From the sequence record NZ_CP044066.1: a DNA stretch of 64,000 bases; one strand, given 5' to 3'. This stretch comes from a plasmid. Numbering within the stretch: position 1 is the first letter of the stretch; every line of letters begins with the position of its first letter. The notes beneath the pieces were generated by a model. The model saw nothing but the letters and a program-made list of their open reading frames with translations, ran no database searches and was not told the origin of the DNA. Of the stretch, positions 38 to 28,785 are shown one piece after another. Position numbers and translations under genes: made by a program.

Positions 38-572
38 ATGCACGGACAGGGATTGGTGACCATGAGCATGCGAGAGATAGACCGCATGAAGGTGATCCAG
101 GCGGTGGCAGACGGCCATTTGGCACGCTGGTGTGCGGCCGAGAAGCTCAGTATCAGTCGCCGCCCGGTCGAGCGGTTGGCGCAGCGATATCGACAGGACG
201 GTCCACGCGGCCTCTTGTCCCGTAAATGGGGGCAAGCCGGCCACCGTCAGTTGGCTCCCCGGGCTGGCGTCACGTGCACGGGGCTTGACCCGCGACCGCT
301 ACGCGGAATTTGGCCCGGCGCTGGCCGCTGAGATCCTGTGCGAGCGTCATGCTAAGGTGAGAGCAACAGAAAGGGAACGGCTGCACCCCACATGCCGGAA
401 GTCGACACCTTATGCGGCAGCGGATCGTCCCAGTATTCCGGACGCCGGCACAGGGTGCAGAAGTGAGCACGGGGTATTCGTTCTCTCCCATTTGATCGTC
501 ATAGTTGCCGCCCTGTGTCTACAGCGTGGACATTGCGGTGGGGCTATCTTTTCTGAAGGTGAGCGACCGTAG
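38..572 (+). pseudogene. Transposase N-terminal fragment (ISNCY-like), frameshifted and 3'-truncated
   Basis: ORF 38-331 contains 'MSMREIDRMKVIQAVADGHLARWCAAEKLSISRRPVERLAQRYRQDGPRGL', typical of the helix-turn-helix N-terminus of ISNCY/IS1202-type transposases. The continuation 'RDRYAEFGPALAAEILCERH' is in a different frame (ORF 132-572). The 3' end is cut off by the end of the 544-4647 gene. Confidence 0.45.
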
Positions 573-3500
573 TCAACAACGCATCGAGACCAATTGGCTT
601 GGATAGATGCGCATCAAAGCCTGCGCGTAAAGCTGCATCGACATCAGCTTGACGATCGAAGCCGCTTATGGCAATGGCATAGATTCCGGCCAGTTTAGGC
701 CGGCTACGCACAGCTCGCAGCAACTCGTAGCCATCCATGCCGGGCATCCCAAGATCCGATAACAAAAGATGCGGTGGCGCGCTCTCCATCTGATCCAGCG
801 CTCGCTCTGCGTTAGTCGCTACGTCGACAGTCGCTCCAATTGACTCGAGCAGCAGTCTAAAGGTCTCCACGGTCAATGCATCGTCATCGACCAAAAACAC
901 ACGCATGCCCTGGAGGACTGCAGTCGGCACTGCTGAGACATGAGCTCCCGTCTCTTGCGTTGAAACAGATGGCAGCTCGACGGTGAAGGTTGCGCCCTGG
1001 CCGATGCCCGCCGACTCGGCATGCACGGTACCATTCTGCAATTCAACCAACTCCTTCACCAACGATAGACCGATGCCGAGCCCACCGCTGCGACCGGCCG
1101 AGAATCCTCCCTGGCGGAACAAGTCAAAGATGTAGGGCAACGTCTGCGCGTCAATGCCCGTGCCCGTATTGCGGACCACCAGACGAAGCTGTGCACCAAT
1201 CCGACTCAAAACGACGTCGATGGCACCACCTTCCTCGGTAAATTTGATTGCGTTGCTGAGCAAGTTCCAAACGATCTGCTCGATACGCGTCAGATCTGCT
1301 CGTACCCACAGCGGCTCCTTACCAATGTCGCAGACCAGGGTCACGCCTCGATCATTTGCGTCTTGCGTAACCGCGTCGCACACGCGTTTCACCACGCTCC
1401 TCAGATCGATTGTCTCTCGGACAATCGATAACTTGCCTGTTCGAATGCGCGACATATCCAGCAAGTCGTCGATAATTTTGGCCTGACCGATGATCGTCTG
1501 TCTGATGGTGTTCGTTGCGCGCTCGATGACAGGATTGCGCTGTGCCTCAGGCGAGCGCGCAATCAACTCATTGCTGGCGCTAATCAGGTTTAGGGGATGC
1601 TTGAGTTCATGCGAGACAATGGCCAAGAACTCGTCACGGCGGAACTGCCCCTGCTGCCATTTGTCTTCATCCGCACGTGGCGCACCGGCGGGCAGCACCT
1701 CGTCCAGGTCGCGGGCGATCTTGGCAAAGCCTATGACGCCACCAGTGTCCAGACGGGACAAGACCCCACTGGAGCGAAAACGCTTGCCGTCCTTGCGCAG
1801 GTGCCAGCGCTCTTCTTCCACACGCCCATATTTGCGAGCCTGTGCCATCTCTTCGTCGGGGACGCCGCGCTCGCGATCTTCCGGCGTAAAGAGGGTGCTC
1901 GCGAGATTACCGAGCATTTCGCTTTCCGAGTATCCGAAGATTCTTTCCGCGCCTCGATTCCAGCTTGTTATGCGACCATCATCATCAAACGTAATGATGG
2001 CGTAATCGCGCGTGCTTTCGGCAACGATGTTCATACGATGCTCGCCTTCACGCGCCCGCTCTTCTGCGGCACGACGTGAGGTGATATCGATGAACGAGAG
2101 CACCGCGCCATCGATGCGGTCCTCTGTGGTTCGATATGGCAAGAATCGCGCGAGGTACCACCGCCCGTCGATACTGCGCAGCTCGCGCTCGATCAATCTC
2201 AGTGAGTCAAAGGCTTCGGCAGCGTCGTCGGCAAGCTTGTCGTACTCCAGACGGTGCGTGATGTCGAGCAGCGATCGGCCGATATCCGAGGGGATAATGC
2301 TAAAGACATCAGTGGCCCGTGGCGTGTAGCGCTTGATTCGGATGTTGCGGTCTACGAATATCGTACCGATGTCGTTCGCCGTAATTAGGTTTTGCAGGTC
2401 GTCGTTGATCTTGCTTGTTTCCTCGACCTTCGACTTCAGTTCCGCATTGACAGTGGTCAGTTCCTCATTGATGGACTGGAGCTCTTCTTTGCTCGTCTCA
2501 AGCTCTTCACTGGCCGAACGTAGCTCCTCGTTGATTGCCTGCAGCTCTTCGTTCGATGCCTTCAGTTCCTCCGTGGATGTCTCGGACTGTTCGATGGTTG
2601 CCTGTAGCTGCTCCTTCGTTCGTTGCAGCTCACGTTCGAGCTGACTCACGATCGGGTCCCGAGACACCACCTCCGAGACTTCACCGTCGGCACTCATGCT
2701 GTTTTCCACTTCGTCGAAGAGTACCAAAATGAAGTCCGCGCCGGATTCGGCGTCGTGCACAGGCCGCGCGATCATGTTGACAAAAAATCGGCGGCCGTCT
2801 CGCGCAAGCTCCACGCGGCGAGCCTCGACGCTGTGATTCGATTGCAATGCCTGGAAGATCGCAGTGCGCAGCTCCAAGCGCAACTCTGGCCTCACGGCAG
2901 CAATAATATTGTGCGAAGGAACGCCGCCGGCATATTGGAGAAAGCGACCGGCCCGATCCGATAGATGGACGATATCGGAGTCGCGGCTAAGCAAGACGCT
3001 CGGCGGCGCGTGTTGCTCCACGAGTCGTTGGTGAAGGTCGCCAAACGAAAACTTACGCTTGCCTGTGGGAGGCTGTAGAGTCATGGGCATTCGTGCGTTG
3101 GCCAAACCGACAGACGATAGCGGCACCGGAGAATCCGTTCTCACGGCAACATTGGCGCGGTAAATCCGCGCCTTCTTGTCAACCAATGTGAAAAGATCGC
3201 CTGCGCCGTCTGCAGTCTCCGAGCTGCCGAGAAATAAGAATCCGCCTTGCCGCAGCGCGAAGTGAAACGTACGGAGAATCTCGAGCTGCGCGTCGCGGTC
3301 CAGGTAAATTAGAAGGTTCCGGCAGCACACCATGTCCAGCCGCGAGAACGGTGGATCGCTAAGGACATTGTGGATAGCGAACAAGACATTGGCACGAAGC
3401 TCTTTCTTCACGCGATAGTGGACTGCCTCCTTGGTCAAAAATTGGCGCGACCTGCGACTGTCCACATCTGCAAGAATTGAATCAGGGTAGAGGCCGAGCC

Positions 3501-4647
3501 GTGCCGTCGCGATCGCACGTTCGTCGATGTCCGTTGCGAAAACCTGAAACGCGACGCCATCTACTGCGCGCTCAGCCGCCTCCTGAAGCGCCATCGCGAT
3601 CGAGTACGCTTCCTCGCCCGTTGCACAGCCAGCGGACCAAACTCGGATCGGCTCGTTGGCGCTCCGATTGTCCAGTAGCTGTGGAATGACAGTTGTCTGC
3701 AGCACATCGAAAGCATCCCGATCACGGAAGAAATTAGTGACGCTGATCAGCATGTCCTGCAGCAGTAACGGGGTCTCGTCCGGATGCTCGTGCAGATAGT
3801 CCCGATATTCGCGTAGATCGGTCAAGCCACTGACTTGCAGCCTTCTCTCGATACGACGAAGAATTGTTGCCCGTTTGTACTGGCGGAAGTCGTGCGAAGT
3901 ACGCGCTCGCAGAATTGCCATGATCTCGCGCAATATGCGTTCGGTATACTCCGCGGCCACCGCATGACTTTTGTTGGGTTCCGCCGCGCTAGGTATCTGA
4001 ATGCGGCTGGCGGTCACCCAGAGATCCATCAATCGCTGTGGCATCTCCGGCACCGACAACACTAGGTCGACCATGCCAGTGGTGATAGCAGCGCGCGGCA
4101 TGCTAGGGAACTCCGCCTCCTCTGGCCGCTGCGCAATGGTGATACCACCAAGTTCCTTGATGCGCGTCAAACCGACCGATCCGTCCGAGCCTGCGCCCGA
4201 CAAGACGATGGAAATGGCACGTTCACGATGTGCTTCCGCCAGTGAGCGAAAGAAAAGGTCAATCGCCGCACGTCGGTCATCTGGTGATTCTGCCGGCTGC
4301 ACTCGCAGACAGCCATCGACCATGGTCAGGAGCACCGATGGCGATATCACGTACACGTGATTGGCTTCAATTAGATTGGCATCCGCAACCTGAACTACGG
4401 GCATATCCGTCGCACTGCGCAACAGGTCGGGAAGCGTGCTATTGTGGTCGGGAGACAAATGCAGCACGATCACGTACGCGGCGCCGGAGCGCGCCGGCAG
4501 AGCTTCAAAGAAAGCTTTCAGCACTTCAATGCCGCCGGCCGAAGCACCTATGCCAACCACCGGAAAATTGAGTTGGCTTGGAGTTGGCACAGGCGGAGTT
4601 CGGACCATAGCTTGATTTAAGTTGGGTGGTGGAGCTTTGGCCACCAT
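544..4647 (-). CDS. CheB methylesterase / CheR methyltransferase / PAS / histidine kinase / receiver hybrid sensor protein
   Basis: 1367 aa. The N-terminus has a CheB-type 'VVGIGASAGG' nucleophile motif. The CheR SAM motif 'VWSAGCATGEEAYSIAMAL' follows. Then comes a heptad 'EELxxxN' coiled coil and a PAS region. The HisKA box is 'SHELKHPLN'. The HATPase has 'NLLSNAIKF...GLGIGLSLV'. The C-terminal receiver reads 'VFLVDDD...DLGMPGMDGYELLR'. An SD-like 'ggag' lies upstream of the ATG at 4647. Confidence 0.9.
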   Translation of the reverse strand: MVAKAPPPNLNQAMVRTPPVPTPSQLNFPVVGIGASAGGIEVLKAFFEALPARSGAAYVIVLHLSPDHNSTLPDLLRSATDMPVVQVADANLIEANHVYVISPSVLLTMVDGCLRVQPAESPDDRRAAIDLFFRSLAEAHRERAISIVLSGAGSDGSVGLTRIKELGGITIAQRPEEAEFPSMPRAAITTGMVDLVLSVPEMPQRLMDLWVTASRIQIPSAAEPNKSHAVAAEYTERILREIMAILRARTSHDFRQYKRATILRRIERRLQVSGLTDLREYRDYLHEHPDETPLLLQDMLISVTNFFRDRDAFDVLQTTVIPQLLDNRSANEPIRVWSAGCATGEEAYSIAMALQEAAERAVDGVAFQVFATDIDERAIATARLGLYPDSILADVDSRRSRQFLTKEAVHYRVKKELRANVLFAIHNVLSDPPFSRLDMVCCRNLLIYLDRDAQLEILRTFHFALRQGGFLFLGSSETADGAGDLFTLVDKKARIYRANVAVRTDSPVPLSSVGLANARMPMTLQPPTGKRKFSFGDLHQRLVEQHAPPSVLLSRDSDIVHLSDRAGRFLQYAGGVPSHNIIAAVRPELRLELRTAIFQALQSNHSVEARRVELARDGRRFFVNMIARPVHDAESGADFILVLFDEVENSMSADGEVSEVVSRDPIVSQLERELQRTKEQLQATIEQSETSTEELKASNEELQAINEELRSASEELETSKEELQSINEELTTVNAELKSKVEETSKINDDLQNLITANDIGTIFVDRNIRIKRYTPRATDVFSIIPSDIGRSLLDITHRLEYDKLADDAAEAFDSLRLIERELRSIDGRWYLARFLPYRTTEDRIDGAVLSFIDITSRRAAEERAREGEHRMNIVAESTRDYAIITFDDDGRITSWNRGAERIFGYSESEMLGNLASTLFTPEDRERGVPDEEMAQARKYGRVEEERWHLRKDGKRFRSSGVLSRLDTGGVIGFAKIARDLDEVLPAGAPRADEDKWQQGQFRRDEFLAIVSHELKHPLNLISASNELIARSPEAQRNPVIERATNTIRQTIIGQAKIIDDLLDMSRIRTGKLSIVRETIDLRSVVKRVCDAVTQDANDRGVTLVCDIGKEPLWVRADLTRIEQIVWNLLSNAIKFTEEGGAIDVVLSRIGAQLRLVVRNTGTGIDAQTLPYIFDLFRQGGFSAGRSGGLGIGLSLVKELVELQNGTVHAESAGIGQGATFTVELPSVSTQETGAHVSAVPTAVLQGMRVFLVDDDALTVETFRLLLESIGATVDVATNAERALDQMESAPPHLLLSDLGMPGMDGYELLRAVRSRPKLAGIYAIAISGFDRQADVDAALRAGFDAHLSKPIGLDALLTTVAHLQKR
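2400..2600 (-). repeat. Intragenic 21-nt (7-aa) tandem repeat array encoding EELKASN/EELQAIN/EELRSAS/EELETSK/EELQSIN/EELTTVN
   Basis: The reverse complement of 2455-2590 translates to 'ETSTEELKASNEELQAINEELRSASEELETSKEELQSINEEL', extending to 'TTVNAELKSKVEE' at 2400-2460. The periodic 'gagctcttc' is visible on the + strand. Confidence 0.85.
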
Positions 4648-5643: not shown

Positions 5644-5711
5644 CCGGGCTTGGCCGGGGGCAATCGCCGCATTCGTAGCACGCTCGCGATCGGCTTATTC
5701 AAGAGAGAGCG

Positions 5712-8705
5712 ATGACGCCATCCAGCACGGTGCATTCCAAAAGTATCTTTCCTCCCATTGTTGCAATCGGTGCCGCAGCTGGTGGGGTCGTTGCCTTGCA
5801 AAAAGTGTTCCGAAGGCTACCCAAAGGCATGCCGTTTGCAATCGTCGTGCTTCAGGACCTCACTGAAGGATACTCACAACGCCTGGCGGGCTTAATATCG
5901 AGTTGGACGAATCTCCCCGTACATGAAGCCGACACCCATTTAGTGCCGAAGATCGGCGAGGTGTATTTACCTTCCCCCGGCCGTGTGCTTACCATCGACG
6001 CACGTTCGCTACGCGCGAGCAAGATCGAAGGTGATCGCCTTGTTAGCGCTAGCGTGAACATGATCGACCGCTTTCTGGAAGGCCTTGCGCAACATCATGG
6101 AAGCCGGGCAGTCGCGGTCATTTTGTCGGGAAAAGGAATGGACGGCGCGGCCGGTGCCTTGTGCATTCGTAATGCCGGCGGGATTGTGATCGTACAGGAT
6201 CCACTGACAGCGTTGCACGATAGCATGCCTAACGCGGTGATACGGCGCGGCCTTCATGATCACATACTGCCACCCGGCGCGATCGGCTCACAAATCCTAG
6301 CGTGTGGCTCCAATAGCTATTCCCGCCCGCGGAATGCTGAAGGGACGGAGCAGATGGACAACAGGGTGTTGGCTCGCATCCTTCTACTAGTCCGCGTGCA
6401 TTCTGGTATCGATTTCACGGGATACAAGACGGCCCCGCTGCTCTGGCGCGTCAAGCAGCGCATGGATCGGCGACATGTGCGAGAGATTGCGGACTACGCA
6501 AGCCTGATCTCGGAAGACCCGGTGGAACTGGAGTCCCTTATCCGCGATATTCCATTACACGTGACCGAATTCTTTCGCGATCCGGGGGCATGGGCAGCAC
6601 TCAAGGAGGAGGTTCTCCTCCCTCTTATGCGGACAGCGGACGCACATAATCCGGTGCGTACATGGACGGCCGGTTGCGCTAGCGGCGAGGAGGCATACTC
6701 GCTTGCGATGACGCTTGAGGATATCAAGCAGGAGATCGATTCTTCTGCGTGTTATCAGAGTTTCGTCACGGATGCTTCTCCCGAGATCGTGCATCGCGCT
6801 CGCTGCGGCGTGTTTGCTCCATCCGACATGGCGACCGTGTCGCAGCGACAACGGACGGAGTATTTCTTTAGTGCAGACAAGATGTTCACTGTCAGAGGTT
6901 TTTTGCGCGAGCAGATGGTTTTCTCCTCTCAGAATCTCATCTCTGACCCTCCATTCGCGAACATGGATCTTGTCACTTGCCGAAACCTACTGATATACCT
7001 AGAGCCCTCCACTGCGAGGCAGATAATCTATATTTTGCACAGTGCGCTGCGCGAAGGGGGCTATCTGTTTCTCGGCGGCAGCGAATCTTATGACCTGGAG
7101 CAAAGCGGCTTTTCAAAAGTGTCCGGGAGGTTCAACATCTTCCGGAAAACCGGGATCGTTCTGGCGCGAGCCAACGCGGAGCATGCGGCCAGTCAACAAC
7201 GTCGCAATATATCAACTTTGAATGCTGGCTTACTTCGTCAGGCCAACGAGGATTTTGTCTTTCCCTCAGTGCTTGTTGACGATCACGGGCGGCTGCTACG
7301 TGTGTATGGGGCCGCCGGTGACATCCTTCGAATACCCGCCGGAGAACCCACAAATACTCTATTGTCGCTACTACCATGGCAATGGGTGGACCCTCTGCGT
7401 CGCGCCATGTGTGAGGCGTTAGCACAAGATCAGCAGCGGATCGTACGGGATCTATATGATCGGGTGGATTTGCGCATCAGAGTGATACCCATACGTGTCA
7501 GCGCCGAGAATCCTCCCAGTCGTATGCTTCTCTCGTTCATGAGCGAGGAGAGCGGTCAATTTACCCTGGTTCCGAGTGTCCCCCTTTCGGAAAGCGTTGA
7601 CCAGCACCGTAGCGGGGTTCGCCGCTGCGCGGGACCGCCTGAGAAAATCCAATCGTCGTCTCATCAGGAATACGACGCTTTACGCGAGAGGCTGCTGGCA
7701 GTCAATGAGGAATTGCTCGCTTCCAATATTTTACTGAACACGAGCAACGATAATCTTCACGGCGCCAACGCCGAACTCCACGAGAAGATTGCGCAGCTGG
7801 AGATTCGTGCGGAAGTACTTTCATCCGGGGAGGTCATGACTATCTTCCTTGACAAGGACCGGAGGGTTCGCTGGTTCACCCCTGCCACCACGAGACTATT
7901 TCCGTTAAAACCGGAGGACGTGGGGCGAGACATCCATGACCTCGTTCCGCGGTTTCGCGATCCGTCGTTCTTGTCCGACATCCAAGAGGTCTTGCGTTCC
8001 TCCGAAATCAAGGATGCCATAGTGCACGGGGACGACGACAGATGGTATCGGCGGCGATTGGTCCCACACGAGGCAGCGATCGGAACCATAGATGGTGTAG
8101 CGGTAACCTTCGAGGACTTCACGACGCGTCGGCACGTCGAAAATGCGCTATGGGCGAGCGAAGATATGCATCGACACAGTCAGATGTGCCTGTCTTCGCA
8201 GAAAGCGGCACTGCAGTTGGCGATGAATGGGGCCCCACTGACAGAGTCGCTTGAGATCCTGCGACATACGATGACCGGAGAGTCAGGCGATAGACGATCC
8301 GCAGCGTTCTATGTAATGCGAGAGTCGAGGCTGCATCACTTGAAGGGAATGCCAGATGCATACGCTCGGTATCTGAATGGCGCTGATGAGACGCTGGAGT
8401 CGGCCTCCTGCAAGTTCGCCCTGGCGACGAACCAAACCGTCACCACATGCGACATCCTTCGCGATGAGCGTTGGAAACCGTGGGCTTTGGTTAGTTCCAG
8501 CTTCGGATATCGCGGTTGTTGGTCGTTTCCCATCCGAACCGGGAGCAGCCAGCTTGTTGGCGCTTTGGTTGTGTACTTCGGTGTCGCTCAAACTCCGGAG
8601 CCTGTTGACCTCCAATTGGCCGCCGCTATGATACACACCGCTGCGATTATCATTTCGCGAAAGGTTGGCGTCGATGTATTCGTAGCGAATGGCTCTCACG
8701 TATAA
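5712..8705 (+). CDS. CheB-like (Ser to Ala) / CheR / coiled coil / PAS / GAF signalling protein, with no kinase core
   Basis: 997 aa. The N-terminal motif is 'PIVAIGAAAGG', a CheB-type motif with Ala in place of the nucleophile Ser. The CheR motif 'VRTWTAGCASGEEAYSLAMTL' is intact. A degenerate 'NEELLASN...NDNL...NAEL' coiled coil, a PAS region and a C-terminal GAF-like region follow. There is no HisKA/HATPase or receiver. ATG at 5712 with a purine-rich upstream. Confidence 0.85.
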   Translation: MTPSSTVHSKSIFPPIVAIGAAAGGVVALQKVFRRLPKGMPFAIVVLQDLTEGYSQRLAGLISSWTNLPVHEADTHLVPKIGEVYLPSPGRVLTIDARSLRASKIEGDRLVSASVNMIDRFLEGLAQHHGSRAVAVILSGKGMDGAAGALCIRNAGGIVIVQDPLTALHDSMPNAVIRRGLHDHILPPGAIGSQILACGSNSYSRPRNAEGTEQMDNRVLARILLLVRVHSGIDFTGYKTAPLLWRVKQRMDRRHVREIADYASLISEDPVELESLIRDIPLHVTEFFRDPGAWAALKEEVLLPLMRTADAHNPVRTWTAGCASGEEAYSLAMTLEDIKQEIDSSACYQSFVTDASPEIVHRARCGVFAPSDMATVSQRQRTEYFFSADKMFTVRGFLREQMVFSSQNLISDPPFANMDLVTCRNLLIYLEPSTARQIIYILHSALREGGYLFLGGSESYDLEQSGFSKVSGRFNIFRKTGIVLARANAEHAASQQRRNISTLNAGLLRQANEDFVFPSVLVDDHGRLLRVYGAAGDILRIPAGEPTNTLLSLLPWQWVDPLRRAMCEALAQDQQRIVRDLYDRVDLRIRVIPIRVSAENPPSRMLLSFMSEESGQFTLVPSVPLSESVDQHRSGVRRCAGPPEKIQSSSHQEYDALRERLLAVNEELLASNILLNTSNDNLHGANAELHEKIAQLEIRAEVLSSGEVMTIFLDKDRRVRWFTPATTRLFPLKPEDVGRDIHDLVPRFRDPSFLSDIQEVLRSSEIKDAIVHGDDDRWYRRRLVPHEAAIGTIDGVAVTFEDFTTRRHVENALWASEDMHRHSQMCLSSQKAALQLAMNGAPLTESLEILRHTMTGESGDRRSAAFYVMRESRLHHLKGMPDAYARYLNGADETLESASCKFALATNQTVTTCDILRDERWKPWALVSSSFGYRGCWSFPIRTGSSQLVGALVVYFGVAQTPEPVDLQLAAAMIHTAAIIISRKVGVDVFVANGSHV

Positions 8706-9143: not shown

Positions 9144-9785
9144 TCAACGGCTAGAAACCAAGCTCCCTGCTTCTTGCTTGATGCACAGACCCAGCCGATC
9201 GGCGAGACGCACCAGCTCGGGCAAAGAGTCGAGCTCGAGCTTTTGCATCACACGTGCACGATGGACCTTAATCGTCTTCTCCACCGTACCAAGCTCGCTA
9301 GCCACCTGTTTGTTACGGATGCCGGTCACTACCCATGTCAGTACCTCGAACTCTCGAGGTGTCAGCCTCTGAATCTTCATTTGCAGCTCCTGCAATTCCC
9401 GTTGTTCTTCGAAGTGTTCTGCGGCCTGGGCGCAACCCTTCTTCACTGCAGCAAGTAGTTGCGTCTCTGACACCGGTTTTTCGAGGAACGCTATGGCACC
9501 CGCTTGCATTGCTCGGACCGCCTGTGCAACGTCGGCATATCCGCTCAGAAAGATTACGGGAATCTTGCCTTCAAGACTCTGCTGGAGTACGAGTCCGTCT
9601 GTACCCGGCATCAGCAGGTCCAGCACCAAGCATGAGGGCTCGGGTCCAAGCTTCACTTCATCAAGGAAAGACTGTGCCGATGAGAACATACTTACCAGAT
9701 AACCATGAGCGGCGAGCATGCGGCTTAGCGCTCGCCTCACGCTGCCATCATCATCGACGATATAAACGGTTGCTTTTGCAAACAT
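9144..9785 (-). CDS. FixJ/LuxR-family response regulator (REC + LuxR HTH)
   Basis: 'MFAKATVYIVDDDGSVRRAL...LLMPGTDGL' is a receiver domain. 'LTPREFEVLTWVVTGIRNKQVASELGTVEKTIKVHRARVMQKL' is a LuxR-type HTH. ATG at 9785 is preceded by GGAG. The 9144-10121 ORF in the track is an unsupported N-terminal extension. Confidence 0.9.
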   Translation of the reverse strand: MFAKATVYIVDDDGSVRRALSRMLAAHGYLVSMFSSAQSFLDEVKLGPEPSCLVLDLLMPGTDGLVLQQSLEGKIPVIFLSGYADVAQAVRAMQAGAIAFLEKPVSETQLLAAVKKGCAQAAEHFEEQRELQELQMKIQRLTPREFEVLTWVVTGIRNKQVASELGTVEKTIKVHRARVMQKLELDSLPELVRLADRLGLCIKQEAGSLVSSR

Positions 9786-9832: not shown

Positions 9833-10672
9833 CTAAGAGCCCATGACGACGTGAGTTCTCTCTTGCAGTAGTTCGAATTCGAATGTCATGCCCCGTCCGC
9901 TGTTGCAGTTGGCCTTGAGACGCCCGCCATTTCGCTCCATAAGTGCCCGACTGAGCGATAACCCCAAGCCCATACCCCTGGGCTTCGAGAAGTAGAAGGG
10001 TCGAAAAATCCTCGAGAGATCGTCTTTGGCTACACCGCACCCGTTGTCTTGAACGGCAATGCACAACGTGCCATCGCCCGCTTTGACCCGTATGACTATG
10101 GAGCGATCGTCGGTCGAGCATCCATTGGTCACAGCATCAAGCGCGTTGGCCAGCAAGTTCAGGAGCACCAAGCGAATTTCCACCGGGTCTCCCATCGCGC
10201 GCGGTAGTGGCTCTGCAAGATCGCGCTGAATCACGACGCAGCGCGATCTCGCATTCGCGCCCGCAAGTTCCACCGCTTGATCAGTCATATCGCCTACGCT
10301 GAATGGCCGCATGTGCGGCGCTTCCCCAAGGACGAGCGCCCGAACGGCGCGCACGATATCGCTTGCCCGCGACGCGTCGTCTACGATATCGTCCAGAATC
10401 TCACGTAGCAACTTCTGTTCGAGCATGTTCGACGCCAGCAACTCGCGCGCGGCGTGCGCGTTGCTCGTTATAGCCGTGAGCGGCTGGCTCAGTTCATGAG
10501 CCAGCGCACCCGCCAGTGTGGTCAGTCCAGTCCGTTGCGACGCATCTTCCGGCAGGCCTTCTGATTCCCGCGGGATCCGCGCTTGTTCGCCGCTACTTCG
10601 AAATGCCAGGGAGCAAGCACGGATGCCAATACCGACGCTTATGCATAGCATCGATACTGCTAAGGGATGCAT
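9833..10672 (-). CDS. Sensor histidine kinase (FixL/NtrB-like HisKA + HATPase) with a short membrane N-terminus
   Basis: H-box 'LAHELSQPLTAITSNAHAA'. ATP-lid motifs 'LLNLLANALDAV', 'DNGCGV', 'GMGLGLSLS'. Hydrophobic N-terminus 'MHPLAVSMLCISVGIGI'. GAGGAG RBS before the ATG at 10672. It lies 48 bp upstream of the regulator gene. Confidence 0.85.
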   Translation of the reverse strand: MHPLAVSMLCISVGIGIRACSLAFRSSGEQARIPRESEGLPEDASQRTGLTTLAGALAHELSQPLTAITSNAHAARELLASNMLEQKLLREILDDIVDDASRASDIVRAVRALVLGEAPHMRPFSVGDMTDQAVELAGANARSRCVVIQRDLAEPLPRAMGDPVEIRLVLLNLLANALDAVTNGCSTDDRSIVIRVKAGDGTLCIAVQDNGCGVAKDDLSRIFRPFYFSKPRGMGLGLSLSRALMERNGGRLKANCNSGRGMTFEFELLQERTHVVMGS

Positions 10673-12352: not shown

Positions 12353-14920
12353 TCAGTCGCGAGTATTTGGGTTTCCGCTGGCGCAGGTGTTAGCCAAACG
12401 TGGGTAAGCCTCGGGCGATGTGGGTACGCCGCAGCCGAGTTCATGAAATAGCCCGGTTGGCCCGGCGGAGCCCATGCTGTGCGCCAACGCGAACGCATCG
12501 TCGGGATGTTGCGGCCGGCCGAGCAGATAACCCTGCCCCTCGTCGTATCCTTCTTCGCGCACTACCGCTAGTTGCTCGGGAGTTTCGATTCCTTCAGCAG
12601 TAGTGCGCACACGGAATGCAGCGCCGAGACTGCGCACAGCGTGAAGAATGGCGCGCGCCTCGGTGCTGGTCGCCAGGTCCGATACAAAGGATCGGTCAAG
12701 CTTGATCTTATCGAAAGGAAAGCTGCGCAAGTAGCTTAGCGAAGAATAACCGGTGCCAAAATCATCCATCGCAACGCGCGCGCCCAAGCCGCGCAGATCG
12801 CGGAGCAATTCAAGATTCTCTCGGTCATTTCGCAGCAACACAGATTCGGTAATTTCCAGTTCGAGCCTCGAGACGTCTACGCCCGCATGGTCCACGGCGC
12901 GGCGCACGGCGTCGACTAACTCGCGCCCTCTGAACTGAAGCGGCGAGAGATTAACACCAACACTAATCCCCGATGGCCAACGGGCCAGTTGTCGGCACGC
13001 TTCGCTTAGCACCCAATTTCCAATCGGAACAATCAGACCCGTCTCTTCCGCCAACGGGATGAAATCGGCGGGCGACACAAGGCCATCAGTCGGATGTCGC
13101 CATCGCAGCAGAGCCTCGAAGCTGCGTAGCTGGCCTGAGCGCAGATCATAGATCGGCTGATAGTGAAGCTCGAGTTGCCCAGCCGCAAGCGCGTGATGCA
13201 GGGCACGTTTGCGTTCGAGCCGCTGCTTGGTCCGATCGCCTTGATCGGCTGAGAAGAAACGGTAGATACCTGGCCCTTCTGCCTTGGCTTGATAAAGCGC
13301 CATGTCCGCAGCCTGCAGTAGCTCATCAGCATTGCGCCCATCATTGGGAAAAAGCGCTATTCCGATGCAACCACCCAGTCTCACTGGCGCCTTGTTCAGC
13401 TCGAACGGGCGTGAGAGCTGCTCGACCAAACGCCGCGCCAGGCCTTCCACTGCGTATCGGTCAACGACCTGCTCTTGGATTACAACAAACTCATCCCCCC
13501 CGATGCGAGCCACCGCGTCAGCATCGGCCACGCATTCGAGCAGCCGACTAGCTACCTGCTGGAGCACGACATCGCCGGCATAATGGCCAAACGCATCGTT
13601 GACGCCTTTGAAGCCGTCCAGATCAATGTACAGCAGCGCGGCGAGCGTATCCGTTCCTGCCGCAGTGATAGTCTGCTCAATGCGTTCGCGCCAAAGCAGA
13701 CGATTAGCGATACCGGTCAGGGGATCATGGCGCGCCGTGTGCGCGAGTGCTTCTTGGTTAGCAAGCAACTGGTGCTCAGCATTCTTACGCTGGGAGATAT
13801 CGCGAAAAAACACTGAGAGGCCGTCGGCAGTCGGATACACATGGACTTCATACCAGGCCTGAAGTATTTTCATGTGATGCTCAAACACGATCGGTCTCTG
13901 AGTAGTGACGGCAGTCCGATAATGTTCCGCGAAGACTCCATCTCGCTCTTCCGGGAAAATGTCCCACACCACGCGCCCGATGGCGGGGTTGCGCCCCGCC
14001 ATCGCGCGTAACGCATTGCCATTGAAGTAGGTCAGGCGTAAGGAGTGGTCGAGTTGCACCACGCTATCGGTCGTACTCTCGAGTACGGCCGACAAGCGGC
14101 TAGCAAGCGCCTCGATCGCCATGGTCGCCGACTTGCGCTCGTCGACGTCTTCGAGTGTGCCATACCAGCGGATGACGTTCCCACAGTCGTCAGTCCGAGC
14201 GGCTGCACGCGCGCGGTGCCAGCGGTAAGTGTCATCCCACAGCTTTACACGATATTCCAGATCCACCGCTTGCTGCGTGGCAACGGCCTCGGCCCACGCT
14301 TCGCGCACGCGTGGCAGATCGTCCGGATGCACGCAACGCGTCCACCCGTCACCCAATGCATCATCCACGGGCATGCCTGTGAGCTCGGTCCAGCGCGGAC
14401 CGGCCTCAGTAATCCATCCCGTGGGATCGGCGGTCCAGGGGATCTCTGGGCTCAATTCGACCGCAGATCGATAGTGCGCCTCGCTCTCCAAGAGTGCCTG
14501 CTCGATGCGGTGTTTATCAGTGATGTCAGTGATCCAGACAAGCAACAAAGGCTCGTCCGAACCTTGCACCCATATCGGGCGCTTGCGGGTACGGAGAACC
14601 CGAGCGTCGCAGCCCGGCATCTGAAATACTTCCGTCGTCTCTCGGTACTCGCCGCGATCGAATACTTGGTCGTGGATAGCCCGGTACTCCGCTGCCCGCT
14701 CTGCAGTAAAAAGCTCGTTGTCTGTACGTCCAATTAGCTCCTGAGCGGGTCGCTGCATGAGTTGACACATCGCCGGGTTCACGAACAACCAGACGCTGCG
14801 CCGGTTCTTCAGCAGCAGAGGCTCCGGAAATTGGCGCCATATTTCCTCGAGGGTCCCGGTTGGTAATGGTGGGCATTCGGGCCTCAGGTCTTCTTTCAGC
14901 TCTGGCAACGATCCCCCCAT
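12353..14920 (-). CDS. PAS/PAC-GGDEF-EAL c-di-GMP turnover protein
   Basis: 855 aa. Multiple PAS-like segments. GGDEF motif in 'RIGGDEFVVI'. EAL domain with 'EALLRWRHP' and 'DDFGTGYSSLSYL'. Confidence 0.9.
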   Translation of the reverse strand: MGGSLPELKEDLRPECPPLPTGTLEEIWRQFPEPLLLKNRRSVWLFVNPAMCQLMQRPAQELIGRTDNELFTAERAAEYRAIHDQVFDRGEYRETTEVFQMPGCDARVLRTRKRPIWVQGSDEPLLLVWITDITDKHRIEQALLESEAHYRSAVELSPEIPWTADPTGWITEAGPRWTELTGMPVDDALGDGWTRCVHPDDLPRVREAWAEAVATQQAVDLEYRVKLWDDTYRWHRARAAARTDDCGNVIRWYGTLEDVDERKSATMAIEALASRLSAVLESTTDSVVQLDHSLRLTYFNGNALRAMAGRNPAIGRVVWDIFPEERDGVFAEHYRTAVTTQRPIVFEHHMKILQAWYEVHVYPTADGLSVFFRDISQRKNAEHQLLANQEALAHTARHDPLTGIANRLLWRERIEQTITAAGTDTLAALLYIDLDGFKGVNDAFGHYAGDVVLQQVASRLLECVADADAVARIGGDEFVVIQEQVVDRYAVEGLARRLVEQLSRPFELNKAPVRLGGCIGIALFPNDGRNADELLQAADMALYQAKAEGPGIYRFFSADQGDRTKQRLERKRALHHALAAGQLELHYQPIYDLRSGQLRSFEALLRWRHPTDGLVSPADFIPLAEETGLIVPIGNWVLSEACRQLARWPSGISVGVNLSPLQFRGRELVDAVRRAVDHAGVDVSRLELEITESVLLRNDRENLELLRDLRGLGARVAMDDFGTGYSSLSYLRSFPFDKIKLDRSFVSDLATSTEARAILHAVRSLGAAFRVRTTAEGIETPEQLAVVREEGYDEGQGYLLGRPQHPDDAFALAHSMGSAGPTGLFHELGCGVPTSPEAYPRLANTCASGNPNTRD

Positions 14921-23519: not shown

Positions 23520-23568
23520 TTCGCGGTAATTACGCCGCACCTGGTTCGCCAGATTGGAGAGCATCACA

Positions 23569-24684
23569 ATGAAGATGAACGACGCCTTCCTCGCCTCAAT
23601 GCGCGAGGCCATGCACCTGCTGAAAACGGCAGGCCCGATGGAGGCGACGACTGCAATCCAGCGCGCGCTCGGCCACCACTCGACCGATCTCGGCCTCGGC
23701 AAGCACAGCGCACCGATGCCTGCGCAAATCGTGGAGTCGCTGTTGACTGACGAGAGGCCGCAGTTGGACAAGGCAGAACCCGTGACGACCGTCGTTGAAC
23801 CGAGTGTCCCTCCACACGCGGTCGCTACTGGGCATTTTTCCCAACACAACTTTGCCAACCAGGCCGGGCAGCGCTCATACAAGGTGTACGTGCCGGCGGC
23901 CGACGCTCGGGCGGAGCCAATGCCGCTCGTCGTTATGCTCCATGGATGTACACAGGACGCCAACGACTTTGCCGCCGGTACCCGTATGAACAACCTTGCG
24001 GACGATCTTGGCTTTGTGGTGGTGTATCCGATTCAATCTCCCGCCGCCAATACCTCGAAATGCTGGAACTGGTTTCGCCCAGGTGATCAACGAGCGGATC
24101 AGGGAGAGCCTTCCATCATTGCTGGTATCACGCGTGAGGTTATGGCGGCTCACCGTATCGATAGAAGTCGGGTATATGTGGCCGGGCTTTCCGCCGGTGG
24201 CGCAATGGCAGCTGTGATGGTCCACACCTATCCAGATCTCTTCGCGGCAGGAGGCGTTCACTCAGGGCTTCCGGCCGGAAGCGCGCACGACCTACCCTCT
24301 GCGCTAGCTGCGATGAACGGCGGCAAAGGAGTTGGACCTTCAAAGCGAGGCGTGGCTCAACCAGTGAAGGCGGTACGTCCCCTGATCGTCTTCCATGGCG
24401 ATGCAGATCACACGGTGCATCCGTCGAACGGGGCAAGGCTGATGGAGCCGTATCAACAAGGACAGCCCAAGGACACGGAAAGGAACAGGGCCACAACCGG
24501 CCGCAGATATACCCGCGAGAAGATTAGCTCGGCGGGCGGTGTGGATGCCGAATACTGGCTGATCCATGGCGCCGGTCACGCGTGGTCGGGGGGCGGCACT
24601 GACGGTTCCTACACTGACCCCAAGGGACCAGACGCCAGTGCGGAAATGCTGCGATTTTTCCTCGCGCATCCCTTGCCCCGCTGA
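23569..24684 (+). CDS. PHB-depolymerase-family esterase (alpha/beta hydrolase)
   Basis: 'LVVMLHGCTQDANDFAAGTRMNNLADDLGFVVVYPIQS', 'RVYVAGLSAGGAMAAV' (a GxSxG nucleophile elbow) and 'IVFHGDADHTVHP' are typical of the Esterase_phd/TIGR01840 family. ATG at 23569 after 'tggagag'. Confidence 0.8.
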   Translation: MKMNDAFLASMREAMHLLKTAGPMEATTAIQRALGHHSTDLGLGKHSAPMPAQIVESLLTDERPQLDKAEPVTTVVEPSVPPHAVATGHFSQHNFANQAGQRSYKVYVPAADARAEPMPLVVMLHGCTQDANDFAAGTRMNNLADDLGFVVVYPIQSPAANTSKCWNWFRPGDQRADQGEPSIIAGITREVMAAHRIDRSRVYVAGLSAGGAMAAVMVHTYPDLFAAGGVHSGLPAGSAHDLPSALAAMNGGKGVGPSKRGVAQPVKAVRPLIVFHGDADHTVHPSNGARLMEPYQQGQPKDTERNRATTGRRYTREKISSAGGVDAEYWLIHGAGHAWSGGGTDGSYTDPKGPDASAEMLRFFLAHPLPR

Positions 24685-24699
24685 TATCTGCTTTAACCG

Positions 24700-27600
24700 C
24701 TATTGACGACCGCGGCTGATCAATGCGTTTAGCTTTTGATAATCCGCGGGTTTGACCATGTAGTGGTCGATTGCGCCCTGCCTGTGGTGTCCGGTCGCAG
24801 GAAGGCCATAGCCGCTCAGTGCAACCACGAGCACGCTGGTTTGTTCCGGCATTTCGCGGATCCGGCGCGCCACTTCATAGCCGTCCATATCAGGCAGACC
24901 AATATCGAGCAAGATCACTTCCGGACGGAACTCTTCTACCGACGCAAGAGCCGCAGTTCCATCGGCGGCAACACGTACCTCGTGCCCATCCAGGAGCAAA
25001 AGAGCGGCCGCGCTCTGCGCGGCATCATTGTTATCATCCACCAGCAATATTCGGCGACTCGTAGGTTCGCTCGCTGGCTCAACGGGATTCGAATGGCGAT
25101 CGGCCAATGTTCCGTGGGGCAACACAGGTAATCGTACGACAAACGTGCTGCCTTGGTTCAGCCCTGGGCTCGTCGCATGGACGGTGCCACCGTGCAGTTC
25201 AACTAGCTTGCGCACCAGCGCGAGTCCGAGCCCCAAGCCCGACTGTCTCCGATCCGCAGGCGAGTCCGCCTGTACGAAAATGTCAAAAATCGGTGAAAGA
25301 AGCTCTTTCTTCATTCCGATACCGTCATCGGTCAGCGTGATAACCGCCTCATCGCCCTGGCGCTCCAGCGTGAGGGCAATATGGCCGCCATCTGGGGTGT
25401 ACTTGATGGCGTTTGCCAGCAGATTGCTAACAATCTGCTCGAGCCGTAGAGGATCTCCTTTGACAATCAGCGAGCCCGGCGGCAGCCTAAGGGTCAGCTC
25501 ATGCCGTTGCAGATCCGCAAGCGGACGAAGGGTCTGGATTGCGTGTCGCACAGGTTCCGCTAGATCTATCTGGACAGACCTAACGACGATCACGCCGCGG
25601 GTGATTCGCGAGACATCGAGAAGGTCGTCGACGAGGCCGATCTCGTGGTCCAGTTGTCGCTGCACCGATTCTTGCACCTGCCGAACGGTCACGGCGTCGG
25701 CGGTACCGCGCTGCCAGACAAGTAGCCCGCTGCGAATTGCGGCAAGTGGATTGCGCAACTCGTGTCCAAGCATAGCCAGGAATTCATCTTTCTGACGATC
25801 GGCTTCTTGCAGCCGGGCAAAATCCGCTCGCTGCCTGGTGACATCTTCAATCGTCAGGAGAACCGAGCCCTGCCCTGACCAGTCCAACCTGCGCGCATTT
25901 AGTCGCATGGTGCGCAGGCCGATTCGCGGGAAAGCGTGAACGATCTCGTAATCGCGAACCGCGGAATGTCGGGGAAGTACATTCTCGAGCAGTTCGCGTA
26001 GCGCCGGAATATCCCACTGGCCGTTACCCAGTGCGTATAGCCGGGAGCCCGCAGTGCTCTCAACAGTCGTGGCGAACATCTGGTAGAAAGCCGCGTTGGC
26101 TCGCTTTACGCGAAGGCCCCCATCGAGCACGAGGATCGGCTGTGCCGTCGTCTCGATGATACCCTCCGCAAAGTCTCTGGCCCCGGCGACATCGGTGTGC
26201 AGATCCTTGAGCTCTCGCACCCGATAGCGCAGTTCCTCATTGGTGGTCGAGAGTTCTTCATTGATCGACTGGAGCTCTTCCTTCGCCGTCTCCAGCTCCT
26301 CGTTCGTGCTGCGGAACTCCTCGTTGCTAGATAGCAGTTCTTCCTCGCTGGACTTGAGTTCCTCGCGGGCGCTCTCGTGCTCTTCCAGCGCCGCTCTGAG
26401 ACGCTCACGGGTTGCGGCAAGCTCGCTTGTCAGCCGGGCGATCTCCTCATCTTTGCCCCCGCGGGTACGGGCGTATTGCGGCCCAACACGCTGCTGCAGT
26501 AACTGTAGGATCAACGCCCTGAGAGGTGCATCTGCAAATCCTCTTTGCGTGACCGGAGGGTAGATGTGTCCCTCGAAAAAGACCAGGAACCAGCGCGAAT
26601 CAGTGCCCGATAGCTTTACGGGACGCACTTCAATGCTGGCCGCACAGTCGCTGCCAGCAAGATTGGCCCGCAATCCTGTCCGACGAGCCGGCGCACCGCT
26701 CTGGCGTACTCTATTGATCGCTTCCGTAACGGCCAGAAAAATCTCCGGCCTAGCGAGTTTTTGAAGGTTCATGCTCGGAGGACCTTCCGGATTAGATAGC
26801 CACCCACTTGTATCGCCGCGAAACATAAGGATATTGAGGTCGCTATCGCATACCACACCGGGGGGCGCGTAGCGACCGAGAGCCTGCCGGTCGGCCTCTG
26901 TGCGGAGTTGCGTTTCCTGCGTTTGTTCACGAGTGGAAGTTCCATGTCGATTTGCTCCGCCATGGGGTCGGGCTGCGATTGTGTCCGGCAACGACGGCTG
27001 AATAGTAGGTCGTGGTTTTCGGATGTAGACCTTGGAACTAGCGTCTTCCAGAACGCCAAAGTACTCGGAGAACGCTCCGACAGTTTCGGAAGGGCCGAGC
27101 ATCAAGACGCCTTCAGTGCGCAACGCATAATGAAAGAGAGGCAGCACGCGAGCTTGTAGCACCGGATCGAGGTAGATCAGCAGGTTCCTGCAACTCACCA
27201 GGCTCATGCGCGAAAACGGGGGATCCTCGGCGACGTTGTGACGCGCAAAGGTACACATGTCCCGTAAGGACTTGTCGATGCGGAAGTATTCGCCTTCGCG
27301 CACGAAATAGCGGCTCAGGCGCTCGGCCGAGACGTTGCGCGCAATATTTTCTATGTAGCGTCCGGTGCGAGCGGCTTCCAGCGCCTCAAGGCTGACGTCC
27401 GTGCCGAATATTTGTACTGAGGCTTCCGAAAGTTGGGGCCCAAGATACTCCGCCAGGCAAATGGCAAGCGAATAGACCTCTTCCCCGCTCGCGCATCCCG
27501 GCACCCAGATTCGAATGGGCCGGTTTGCGCCTGTCTCGCGGAGAATGCGGGGCAAAACGGTGTGTACCAGGGTGTCGAATGTCTTCGGGTCCCGAAAGAA

Positions 27601-28467
27601 CTCGGTTACGCGGACGAGTAGATCACGACCCAGCGCCAGCGCCTCGGCTGTATCCTCTTCAAGGACTGCACGATAGTCGGCTAGCGATGTCAATTGGCGC
27701 AAAGCCATACGACGCGCGAGTCTGCGCTCGACAGTACCGCGCTTGTAATGGGTGAAGTCGATCGTGCAGGCCGATCGTAAGAGCCAGAATATGCGCCGGA
27801 GGGCGGGGCCTCCCGAATCGGCTTCTAGGCTTGTACAAACATCATCTCCAACCCGCCGGATCGGGAGGGCTGTGATACGTCCGATCTCCGCCGCGATCTC
27901 TTGCGGCTTCATAACGAAGTCGACGCAACCAGTGGCAATGGCCGCCCGCGGCATGCTGGAGAATTTAGCGGATTCCTCGTCCTGCGCAAACGTAATTCCG
28001 CCCTCCCGCTGCAGCGCACGCAGGCCCAACGCGCCGTCCGAGCCTCCACCCGAAAGCACGACGCCGATGGCGTTCTGACCTTCATGCGCCGCCAGCGAGT
28101 CGAACAGATCGTCGATTGGCATCGGAGGGCCCAGCGTGTTGCCACCCGGCTCGAGGTGAATCTTCCAGCCATTCACGAACATTCGGGCGTTGGGCGGAAT
28201 TACGTAGACGCGATTGATCCCTAACTGCATTCCGTCAACCGCTTCGACCACCTCCATTTCCGTTCGCGTGGCCAGAATTCCGGGCAGCAAACTCTCGTGG
28301 GACGGGTCAAGATGCTGAACGATCAGGAACGCCGCACCAGTGTCGCCAGGAAGCGCGCCAAAAAAGTCGGACAGCGCCTCTAGTCCGCCAGCTGATGCGC
28401 CAATACCAACGAGCGGAATCGAGGAAGGCGTCGGTTCTGCAGAATCCGCGGACAGGCTAGTCGCCAT
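24700..28467 (-). CDS. CheB methylesterase / CheR methyltransferase / PAS / histidine kinase / receiver hybrid sensor protein (paralog of 544-4647)
   Basis: CheB motif 'PLVGIGASAGG'. CheR motif 'IRIWVPGCASGEEVYSLAICL'. A heptad EEL array and a PAS region. HisKA 'GHELRNPLAAIR'. HATPase 'NLLANAIKYT...GLGLGLALV'. C-terminal receiver 'RILLVDDNND...DIGLPDMDGYEV'. The ATG at 28467 ('MATSLSADS') is preceded by GAGGA. The track ORF extends to 28521. Confidence 0.9.
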   Translation of the reverse strand: MATSLSADSAEPTPSSIPLVGIGASAGGLEALSDFFGALPGDTGAAFLIVQHLDPSHESLLPGILATRTEMEVVEAVDGMQLGINRVYVIPPNARMFVNGWKIHLEPGGNTLGPPMPIDDLFDSLAAHEGQNAIGVVLSGGGSDGALGLRALQREGGITFAQDEESAKFSSMPRAAIATGCVDFVMKPQEIAAEIGRITALPIRRVGDDVCTSLEADSGGPALRRIFWLLRSACTIDFTHYKRGTVERRLARRMALRQLTSLADYRAVLEEDTAEALALGRDLLVRVTEFFRDPKTFDTLVHTVLPRILRETGANRPIRIWVPGCASGEEVYSLAICLAEYLGPQLSEASVQIFGTDVSLEALEAARTGRYIENIARNVSAERLSRYFVREGEYFRIDKSLRDMCTFARHNVAEDPPFSRMSLVSCRNLLIYLDPVLQARVLPLFHYALRTEGVLMLGPSETVGAFSEYFGVLEDASSKVYIRKPRPTIQPSLPDTIAARPHGGANRHGTSTREQTQETQLRTEADRQALGRYAPPGVVCDSDLNILMFRGDTSGWLSNPEGPPSMNLQKLARPEIFLAVTEAINRVRQSGAPARRTGLRANLAGSDCAASIEVRPVKLSGTDSRWFLVFFEGHIYPPVTQRGFADAPLRALILQLLQQRVGPQYARTRGGKDEEIARLTSELAATRERLRAALEEHESAREELKSSEEELLSSNEEFRSTNEELETAKEELQSINEELSTTNEELRYRVRELKDLHTDVAGARDFAEGIIETTAQPILVLDGGLRVKRANAAFYQMFATTVESTAGSRLYALGNGQWDIPALRELLENVLPRHSAVRDYEIVHAFPRIGLRTMRLNARRLDWSGQGSVLLTIEDVTRQRADFARLQEADRQKDEFLAMLGHELRNPLAAIRSGLLVWQRGTADAVTVRQVQESVQRQLDHEIGLVDDLLDVSRITRGVIVVRSVQIDLAEPVRHAIQTLRPLADLQRHELTLRLPPGSLIVKGDPLRLEQIVSNLLANAIKYTPDGGHIALTLERQGDEAVITLTDDGIGMKKELLSPIFDIFVQADSPADRRQSGLGLGLALVRKLVELHGGTVHATSPGLNQGSTFVVRLPVLPHGTLADRHSNPVEPASEPTSRRILLVDDNNDAAQSAAALLLLDGHEVRVAADGTAALASVEEFRPEVILLDIGLPDMDGYEVARRIREMPEQTSVLVVALSGYGLPATGHHRQGAIDHYMVKPADYQKLNALISRGRQ
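26225..26400 (-). repeat. Intragenic 21-nt (7-aa) tandem repeat array encoding EELKSSE/EELLSSN/EEFRSTN/EELETAK/EELQSIN/EELSTTN
   Basis: The reverse complement translates to 'REELKSSEEELLSSNEEFRSTNEELETAKEELQSINEELSTTNEEL'. The + strand shows periodic 'gagctcttc/ctcctcgtt' units. Confidence 0.85.
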
Positions 28468-28785
28468 GAGTGTCCTCTGTGCCAGTACGATACCCACGCC
28501 ACCAATCACGTCTCGCCGCACTAAGGTCTTCCCTGATCATACGCCTCGGTTGTGGGCGCTGCCCCTGAGCTCCTCCCATTACTGCAAATTTGTACCCAAT
28601 TCGGCGACGCAATGTGCAATATCGAAAGACGAAAGTCGGCAAGCTCTGCGAGGTGGTCGCCTATGCGACGCTTATTGAGGGTTTCGACGCGGTTGGGATC
28701 ACCTTTCGAAAGCATGGCTGGCGGGCACGATGATTGCGCTTCAGTGAATGCCTTGCGTTTCGCAGGGCGATCACAGAGGTTCACA

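Follow-up and report, generated by a model that had tools for sequence, protein, structure and literature searches.

Three divergent CheB-CheR fusion proteins encoded on a plasmid and the candidate methyl-accepting helix within them

What do the chemotaxis enzymes CheB and CheR act upon when they are fused into one polypeptide and encoded away from any chemoreceptor gene? This question is raised by a stretch of 64,000 nucleotides of plasmid DNA from sequence record NZ_CP044066.1, hereafter called the window. A first-pass annotation, made from its letters alone, had noticed three CheB-CheR fusion paralogs in alternating orientation, and had seen in them and their neighbours one dedicated signalling hub. 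We searched the 64-kb window with Pfam, on its large open reading frames (ORFs), and with our own CheB and CheR hidden Markov models (HMMs), on all ORFs of at least 50 amino acids (aa). Exactly three ORFs, here named A, B and C, carried the CheB_methylest, CheR_N and CheR domains, and they lie on the minus, plus and minus strand, respectively, thereby bearing out both the number and the orientation of the paralogs. The analysis described below suggests that these proteins belong to a family of cytoplasmic sensors which may carry the substrate of their own adaptation enzymes, in the form of a long helix with regularly spaced pairs of glutamates (EE pairs).

CheB-CheR fusion genes outside che operons

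Gene A (544..4647, minus strand) encodes a hybrid sensor kinase of 1367 aa, as counted from the first ATG, with the Pfam order CheB, CheR, tether, PAS-like domain, EE-heptad helix, PAS_10, PAS, HisKA-HATPase and receiver (REC); a publicly annotated member of its 90% cluster begins 13 aa later, which gives 1354 aa. Gene B (5712..8705, plus strand, 997 aa) consists of an apparently dead CheB domain, CheR, a PAS-like domain, a decayed version of the helix, PAS_10 and GAF, and has no kinase. Gene C (24700..28521, minus strand) encodes the second hybrid sensor kinase, made of CheB, CheR, PAS-like domain, EE-heptad helix, PAS_4, HisKA-HATPase and REC. Its ORF runs for 1273 aa from a GTG codon, and since its orthologs are about 1255 aa long, Met19 (position 28467) is the likely start, giving a product of 1255 aa. 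The sizes proposed earlier (1367, 997 and about 1255 aa) thus agree with ours. The common CheB-CheR-coiled-coil-PAS architecture proposed with them also stands, as a core of CheB, CheR, PAS-like domain, long helix and PAS, the last being of the PAS_10 type in A and B and of the PAS_4 type in C. The HisKA-HATPase-REC core, which in A occupies 565..1638 (minus strand, aa 1004-1361) together with the C-terminal receiver, was matched by Pfam in A and C only, B ending in GAF. With H-boxes reading SHELKHPL in A and GHELRNPL in C, the features of a hybrid histidine kinase were present in A and C and not in B.

Pairwise identity among A, B and C is 30-37%, which indicates that they are old paralogs of three subfamilies and not recent duplicates. 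Each forms a separate orthogroup that extends over Burkholderiales, Pseudomonas, Massilia, methanotrophs and Acidobacteriota, with hundreds of homologs apiece; the orthologs of gene A, for instance, are 59-84% identical and occur in Cupriavidus, Paraburkholderia, Burkholderia, Pseudomonas and Massilia. The product of gene B is 100% identical to QET03933.1/WP_150373998.1, a plasmid protein of Cupriavidus pauculus, that of gene A shares a 90% cluster with a plasmid protein neighbouring QET03933.1, and the best database relative of the gene C product is 92% identical. By these identities, the window belongs to a plasmid of the C. pauculus/plantarum type or to a near relative of such a plasmid. 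Homologs are named 'two-component system CheB/CheR fusion protein', 'CheR family methyltransferase' or 'signal transduction histidine kinase with CheB and CheR activity'. The cheBR family ('Two-component system, chemotaxis family, CheB/CheR fusion protein', K13924 in genome papers) has the same architecture as A, B and C, all three of which combine, by Pfam and our own HMMs, a REC-less CheB_methylest domain with a following CheR_N and CheR S-adenosylmethionine (SAM) domain in one polypeptide. Close homologs of the three bear the cheBR name in JGI, NCBI and UniRef. In the searchable literature, cheBR appeared in gene lists only, with no substrate, helix motif or mechanism described. By domain order and identity, then, A, B and C are anciently diverged members of a catalogued, mechanistically unstudied family of CheB/CheR fusions.

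Neither CheA, CheW nor a methyl-accepting chemotaxis protein (MCP) was detected in the 64 kb, either by Pfam on large ORFs or when E. coli CheA, CheW and the Tar signalling domain were used as phmmer queries against all ORFs from 50 aa upwards, in agreement with the first-pass annotation, which had seen no cheA, cheW or mcp gene. A, B and C themselves gave no Pfam MCPsignal match and no phmmer match to the Tar signalling domain. We also inspected 80 related loci, chosen as the best loci with one genome per species and covering 8 kb on each side, and none had cheA, cheW or mcp within that distance. The same three genes were absent near three C orthologs and two B orthologs, which were orphans among unrelated genes. 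With the fusions lying outside any che operon in the window, in the 80 loci and in the five ortholog contexts, the earlier suggestion of non-motility signalling is well supported, and the family is very probably not a motility component. The best explanation of these sequences is that A, B and C are cytoplasmic sensors outside the chemotaxis pathway, with a hybrid histidine kinase (A and C) or a GAF domain (B) as output.

The same contexts bear on an alternative which we consider unlikely, namely that ordinary MCPs of the host are the trans substrates of the fused CheR and CheB, that the PAS, kinase and GAF domains gate them in response to cytoplasmic signals, and that the helix serves plain dimerisation or signalling. 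Genes of this family were never found beside cheA, cheW or mcp in any of the contexts above, which speaks against it; canonical cheR-cheB blocks are located in che operons (PMC2829493). Nor does CheB carry a receiver domain, another point against action on MCPs: the domain begins at aa 31 in A, 17 in B and 38 in C (Pfam), which leaves no room for an N-terminal receiver. On the other side, homology to CheB and CheR is clear, the catalytic residues are kept, and B retains its CheR without EE sites. A CheR/CheB fusion of Azospirillum brasilense Sp7 is also reportedly involved in chemotaxis and cyst development, as the title of Wu et al. 2011 (Microbiol Res 166:606) puts it.

Adaptation enzymes and the acidic helix

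Catalytic residues of the CheB domains were judged by alignment to E. coli CheB (S164/H190/D286). The REC-less methylesterase domain of A (4030..4557, minus strand, aa 31-206) has its triad Ser36/His63/Asp155 intact, as seen also from the HMM columns. The Ser-His-Asp triad is likewise intact in C and lost in B, in whose CheB-like domain (5760..6296, plus strand) the catalytic Ser is replaced by Ala22 (IGAAAGG) and the His by Asp/Gln (VLQDL), predicting an inactive esterase. Among about 550 family members, roughly 80-85% keep the triad. The CheR_N and CheR SAM domain of A spans 3172..3930 (minus strand, aa 240-492). When aligned to E. coli CheR, the equivalents of R98, E129, D154, R230 and Y235 are invariant in A, B and C, and are kept in more than 95% of the same family members. 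The basic residues of CheR helix alpha2, which are kept in A, include K46, R53 and R57, invariant in the three proteins, and R56, which is kept in A and C and is Gln in B; Shiomi et al. 2002 are said to have found that basic residues on this helix recognise the acidic methylation helix. Judged by these residues, the adaptation enzymes of A and C, and the CheR of all three, look active.

The structural setting was examined in an AlphaFold2 model of A, built with a 48-sequence alignment. CheR is followed in it by a probably flexible linker to a PAS-helix-PAS rod (3010..3144, minus strand, aa 502-546), where the predicted local distance difference test (pLDDT) is below 50. A PAS-like fold then precedes the helix, with a second low-confidence linker at residues 649-667. 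By AlphaFold2/DSSP, the helix itself is predicted to be single and continuous for 92 residues (2377..2652, minus strand, aa 666-757; pLDDT about 80-91). It is built of a strict heptad repeat, [ST]-x-N-E-E-L-x. In A, eight in-phase heptads with EQ or EE pairs (2446..2613, minus strand, aa 679-734) read KEQLQAT, IEQSETS, TEELKAS, NEELQAI, NEELRSA, SEELETS, KEELQSI and NEELTTV, and these pairs are candidate methyl-accepting sites. Gene C has seven to eight in-phase EE heptads (26239..26385, minus strand, aa 713-761), reading EEHESAR, EELKSSE, EELLSSN, EEFRSTN, EELETAK, EELQSIN, EELSTTN and EEL, again as candidate sites. In B, the repeat of the corresponding helix (7674..7811, plus strand) has decayed to NEEL, NILL, NDNL and NAEL, with one EE pair left. 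The helix segment is free of Asp, and its net charge comes to -13 in A and -11 in C.

During MCP methylation the second Glu of a pair is modified, and sites 297, 304 and 311 of Tsr are placed one heptad apart (PMC1079850). A relaxed form of the MCP consensus from that work, [EQ][EQ]xx[AST][ASTIV], was used as the site pattern. It gave eight in-phase sites in A, seven in C and one in B, with two further matches in all of A. In E. coli Tar the same pattern matched only at positions 295, 302, 309 and 491, which we take to be its methylation sites. From its sequence and heptad phasing, the helix thus looks like a match to the MCP-type substrate consensus of CheR and CheB.

Conservation of the pairs was followed in 293 distinct family helices. 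Six consecutive EE pairs were 94-100% conserved, with Asp at no more than 3%, and the two N-terminal pairs were typically E-Q. Some MCP sites are encoded in the gene as Gln and deamidated by CheB, and the upstream E-Q pairs recall such sites. Runs of 5-10 pairs are usual in the A and C orthogroups, and shuffled sequences reach 1-2. The related loci also hold 1,834 other ORFs of 200 aa or more, and a run of at least three pairs occurred in only four of these, three being truncated family members.

The helix and the two enzymes also travel together. An exhaustive profile-free search for the helix-plus-PAS_10 module returned 17,378 clusters at 50% identity. Among the best 150 of them, 72 contain the two enzyme domains, 52 lack both, and 26 are N-terminal fragments. 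Four of the 52 were examined in context, and in three a CheB-CheR gene lies directly upstream on the same strand; in two of the three the split falls exactly in the linker after CheR, and around the fourth no such gene was found. The 80 loci gave a similar picture, with 72 fused proteins, five split into abutting ORFs, two cut by the contig end and one without CheBR. The helix is therefore almost always fused to CheB-CheR or encoded directly downstream of a CheB-CheR gene. Action of the enzymes on host MCPs would leave unexplained both this near-exclusive linkage and the invariant EE heptads.

Two further arrangements were observed among the relatives. In natural split versions (L007 3382-7925, L008 3320-7946 and L075 5904-9407), a gene for CheB-CheR, or for CheB alone, abuts or overlaps a gene for PAS-helix-PAS_10 and output, the break in L007 and L008 lying in the linker after CheR. 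Separately, a stand-alone gene for a REC-less CheB adjoins the A ortholog in about 24 of the 80 related genomes, mostly just upstream (L010-L020, L024, L026, L032, L033, L037, L043, L049, L060, L075 and L080, typically at about 4.7-6.0 kb in locus coordinates); the window lacks such a gene. The catalytic His is present in these stand-alone genes, and their products have a C-terminal CxxC...CHTGH tail resembling a zinc ribbon.

We propose that each of the proteins is a self-contained methyl-accepting sensor, in which the tethered CheR and CheB modify the helix of the same protein or of a paralog and so tune the kinase (A, C) or the GAF domain (B), and we hold this proposal with evenly balanced confidence. 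The helix would be a built-in methyl acceptor: the fused CheR would methylate its Glu-Glu and Glu-Gln pairs, and the fused CheB would demethylate or deamidate them. A tether of some 45 residues, probably flexible in the model of A, would join CheB-CheR to a rod made up of the PAS-like domain, the 92-residue helix and the second PAS, and modification could occur in cis, across a dimer or between paralogs. Neutralisation of up to about eight acidic pairs per chain may alter the packing or stability of the helix, and such a change would set the gain of transfer from PAS sensor to kinase, amounting to MCP-style adaptation inside a two-component kinase. The C-terminal receiver of A and C could feed kinase activity back onto the enzymes. 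Where paralogs have near-identical helices, interaction among them is plausible, and they may engage in cross-talk. For B, whose esterase has neither the catalytic Ser nor the His, whose helix is down to a single EE pair and whose CheR is intact, a role as regulator or trans-acting methyltransferase is more likely than one as self-adapting unit. The wider form of the proposal, that the EE-heptad helix is a true CheR/CheB substrate and that CheB/CheR fusions are widespread cytoplasmic 'methyl-accepting sensor kinases', is put forward tentatively and a shade short of evenly balanced confidence. The claim that the locus is 'receptor-free' stands in that no MCP is encoded in the window, but is probably the wrong frame, since the proteins appear to carry a methyl-accepting helix of their own.

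Several observations weigh against the proposal of a methyl-accepting helix. The known CheR substrates are antiparallel four-helix bundles, and the helix here is presumably a two-stranded parallel coiled coil. The whole helix is conserved, including its Leu, Asn and small residues, and the EE pairs could thus reflect a structural or signalling constraint instead of recognition by an enzyme. CheBR is missing from the surroundings of one helix-PAS_10 kinase (L009) and of one locus (L027), and the 80-locus sample is biased towards the A subfamily. Ordinary MCPs are probably encoded elsewhere in Cupriavidus hosts. Lineages with a degenerate CheB triad that keep full EE runs also exist (Trinickia SRD, the SHN group and others), so that esterase loss and EE decay are not generally coupled. 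A rule that a dead esterase goes with a decayed EE repeat fits B and its nearest relatives and fails in these other lineages; it was dropped as evidence, the joint loss in B and its two nearest relatives representing few independent events and amounting to an anecdote. Finally, B keeps an apparently active CheR and almost no EE sites, and that CheR must then have another target.

This last point leads to a second alternative, in which CheB-CheR modifies some other protein or is a non-catalytic sensor, for example of the levels of SAM and S-adenosylhomocysteine (SAH), and the acidic helix serves cation sensing or partner binding. We regard it as improbable. It draws on the dead esterase of B and the persistence of esterase-dead lineages, on the FixJ-like regulator encoded nearby, and on a precedent: according to a report on Salmonella (PMC8546571), CheR can methylate consecutive acidic residues in a non-MCP protein, the response regulator PhoP. 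The CheR catalytic residues are, however, under strong purifying selection, which argues against a pure pseudo-enzyme, and no partner gene is conserved beside the orthologs. The heptad-phased match to the MCP consensus would, moreover, have to be a coincidence.

Neighbourhood of the three genes on the plasmid

The interval between B and C holds further signalling genes. An operon-like run on the minus strand comprises a SYLF lipoprotein, a 279-aa kinase and a REC-GerE regulator. The 279-aa histidine kinase (9833..10672, minus strand) has a FixL-like core of HisKA and HATPase only by Pfam, with a hydrophobic N-terminus and no PAS or heme domain; having no sensor domain, it may receive its input through a partner protein. 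The 213-aa response regulator (9144..9785, minus strand) was identified by Pfam and by the gene call in locus L001. FixL and FixJ are the best NCBIfam matches of this kinase core and regulator, and the REC plus GerE architecture is the same as in FixJ. The scores of both proteins fall well short of the family cut-offs, at 143 bits for the kinase against FixL (cut-off 850) and 178.7 for the regulator against FixJ (cut-off 255). The earlier description as a FixL/FixJ-like pair suits the kinase core and the family of the regulator, but not the PAS/heme sensor, which the kinase lacks. A PAS-GGDEF-EAL protein with several PAS domains (12353..14920, minus strand; Pfam, NCBIfam) has its GGDEF, EAL (EALLR), DDFGTG and EGIE motifs intact. 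The ORF of the SYLF lipoprotein, of the BPSL1445 family (10686-11120, minus strand), is matched by the NCBIfam model only from position 52 onwards, and the signal/lipobox part seems missing, or the start mis-set.

These genes had been placed between the paralogs in the first-pass annotation, as a kinase-regulator operon and an enzyme of cyclic di-GMP (c-di-GMP) turnover. They do lie between B and C, but with non-signalling genes interleaved: besides the SYLF lipoprotein, BrkB, TctA, a phasin and an esterase of the polyhydroxybutyrate (PHB) depolymerase type occur in the same interval, as does a Crp/FNR regulator. The idea of one hub, in which the paralogs, the FixLJ-like pair and the PAS-GGDEF-EAL protein form a co-evolved plasmid network for c-di-GMP and biofilm, with phosphotransfer from A and C to the FixJ-like regulator, is in our estimate doubtful to a marked degree. 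All its genes do sit within 28 kb, and a GGDEF gene lies directly upstream of the B ortholog in Caballeronia. In Massilia sp. IC2-477 (L073, 2491-16594), three CheBR-type genes are found within 16.6 kb with the same -, +, - orientation as in the window, so that clusters of CheBR paralogs recur in at least one distant genus. Yet no conserved neighbourhood surrounds the orthologs of A, B and C, which are usually single orphan genes, and the paralogs are old, as their low identity indicates. Unrelated transport, PHB and envelope genes are interleaved, remnants resembling helix-turn-helix (HTH) proteins or transposases lie nearby, one such ORF beside A, and the hybrid kinases A and C would need a histidine phosphotransfer (Hpt) protein, none of which was identified. 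A single dedicated hub was hence not borne out, and A, B and C appear to share this plasmid as a lineage-specific feature, not as a conserved operon. The cluster is unusual, as had been noted for its density, but it is not unique, a second CheBR gene occurring within 8 kb in about three of the 80 loci (L013, L070 and L073). What seemed to be CheBR-GGDEF-EAL fusions in L073 were PAS matches, the phmmer query having cross-matched PAS domains, and the numbers of GGDEF-EAL neighbours obtained with that query were set aside.

The rest of the window (28-64 kb) contains Mn catalase, sugar-polymer enzymes, transporters, a KaiC-like ATPase with a receiver, an integrase and an IS21 element, and no che genes. 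Around C (21229-35364), the genes have a storage and stress flavour: phasin, Crp/FNR, the PHB-depolymerase-type esterase, Mn catalase, a GT1 glycosyltransferase and a glycogen-debranching-like enzyme. It may be noted beside them that the only genetic report found on a CheR/CheB fusion, the Azospirillum one, deals by its title with cyst (dormancy) development. At 42704-44562, a double-domain KaiC-like ATPase (502 aa) overlaps a downstream single-domain, CheY-like receiver (44185-44562), with two ORFs lacking any family match just upstream (41238-41702 and 42206-42700). Traces of mobile elements comprise an HTH_23/28/29 (HTH/transposase-like) ORF to the left of A (38-331, plus strand), the integrase (44868-45782) and the IS21 genes istA/istB (52762-54647). 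The 1-kb spacer between A and B (4648-5711) holds short ORFs only, with no Pfam match. One spacer ORF begins MSEVTVIGIDLGRHVFHL, resembling the N-termini of IS110 transposases, and its IS110 identity was not confirmed; a 58-aa spacer ORF considered as an IS110 remnant had no Pfam support. Megablast of 25 kb against the plasmids of PLSDB matched the TctA gene only (72-88%), so that this collection does not include the source plasmid; an Rfam scan of the whole window gave no match, and a promoter and terminator scan of positions 1-16000 found sites no more numerous than in shuffled sequence.

Relation to known systems and meaning for the family

One close parallel is the chemotaxis module of MCP, CheR and CheB. 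It has the same two enzymes, whose catalytic residues are intact here (those of the esterase in A and C), and an enzyme tethered by a linker, which here is probably flexible. In contrast to that module, the fusions have no MCP signalling domain, CheA, CheW or CheB receiver; they unite the candidate acceptor helix, the enzymes and the kinase in one chain, and the helix is predicted to be single and long instead of a hairpin bundle. Chemosensory pathways with alternative cellular functions, of the Wsp, Che3 and Frz types, and CheR-TPR fusions have been described (PMC3447774). The Wsp, Che3 and Frz types likewise employ adaptation enzymes of the chemotaxis type for non-motility outputs, but keep MCP, CheW and CheA in one cluster, whereas none of these is present here and the kinase belongs to the ordinary HisKA hybrid type. 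The A. brasilense Sp7 fusion is likewise a fused methyltransferase/methylesterase, with a reported role beyond motility.

For the window alone, the outcome is more modest: the plasmid carries a cluster of three divergent members of the family, one of them with an esterase predicted to be dead. The family as such is already catalogued, and the reading of its members as methyl-accepting sensor kinases would, if confirmed, be a new form of methylation-based adaptation. It turns the question of what orphan CheB-CheR fusions act upon into a testable prediction at the level of residues in a soluble protein. Genome and metagenome surveys regularly count CheB/CheR fusions among the 'chemotaxis genes', even for organisms without flagella, and nothing ties these fusions to chemoreceptors; if the acidic helix is indeed the substrate, those counts are misleading. 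There would then be a large family of sensor kinases with a built-in adaptive memory of the kind so far tied to chemoreceptor arrays, comprising over 17,000 sequence clusters whose outputs are kinases, GAF domains and others, and uniting receptor, adaptation enzymes and transmitter in one chain. Such proteins would give ordinary two-component signalling a methylation-based memory without a chemotaxis array, and paralogs with similar helices could cross-methylate.

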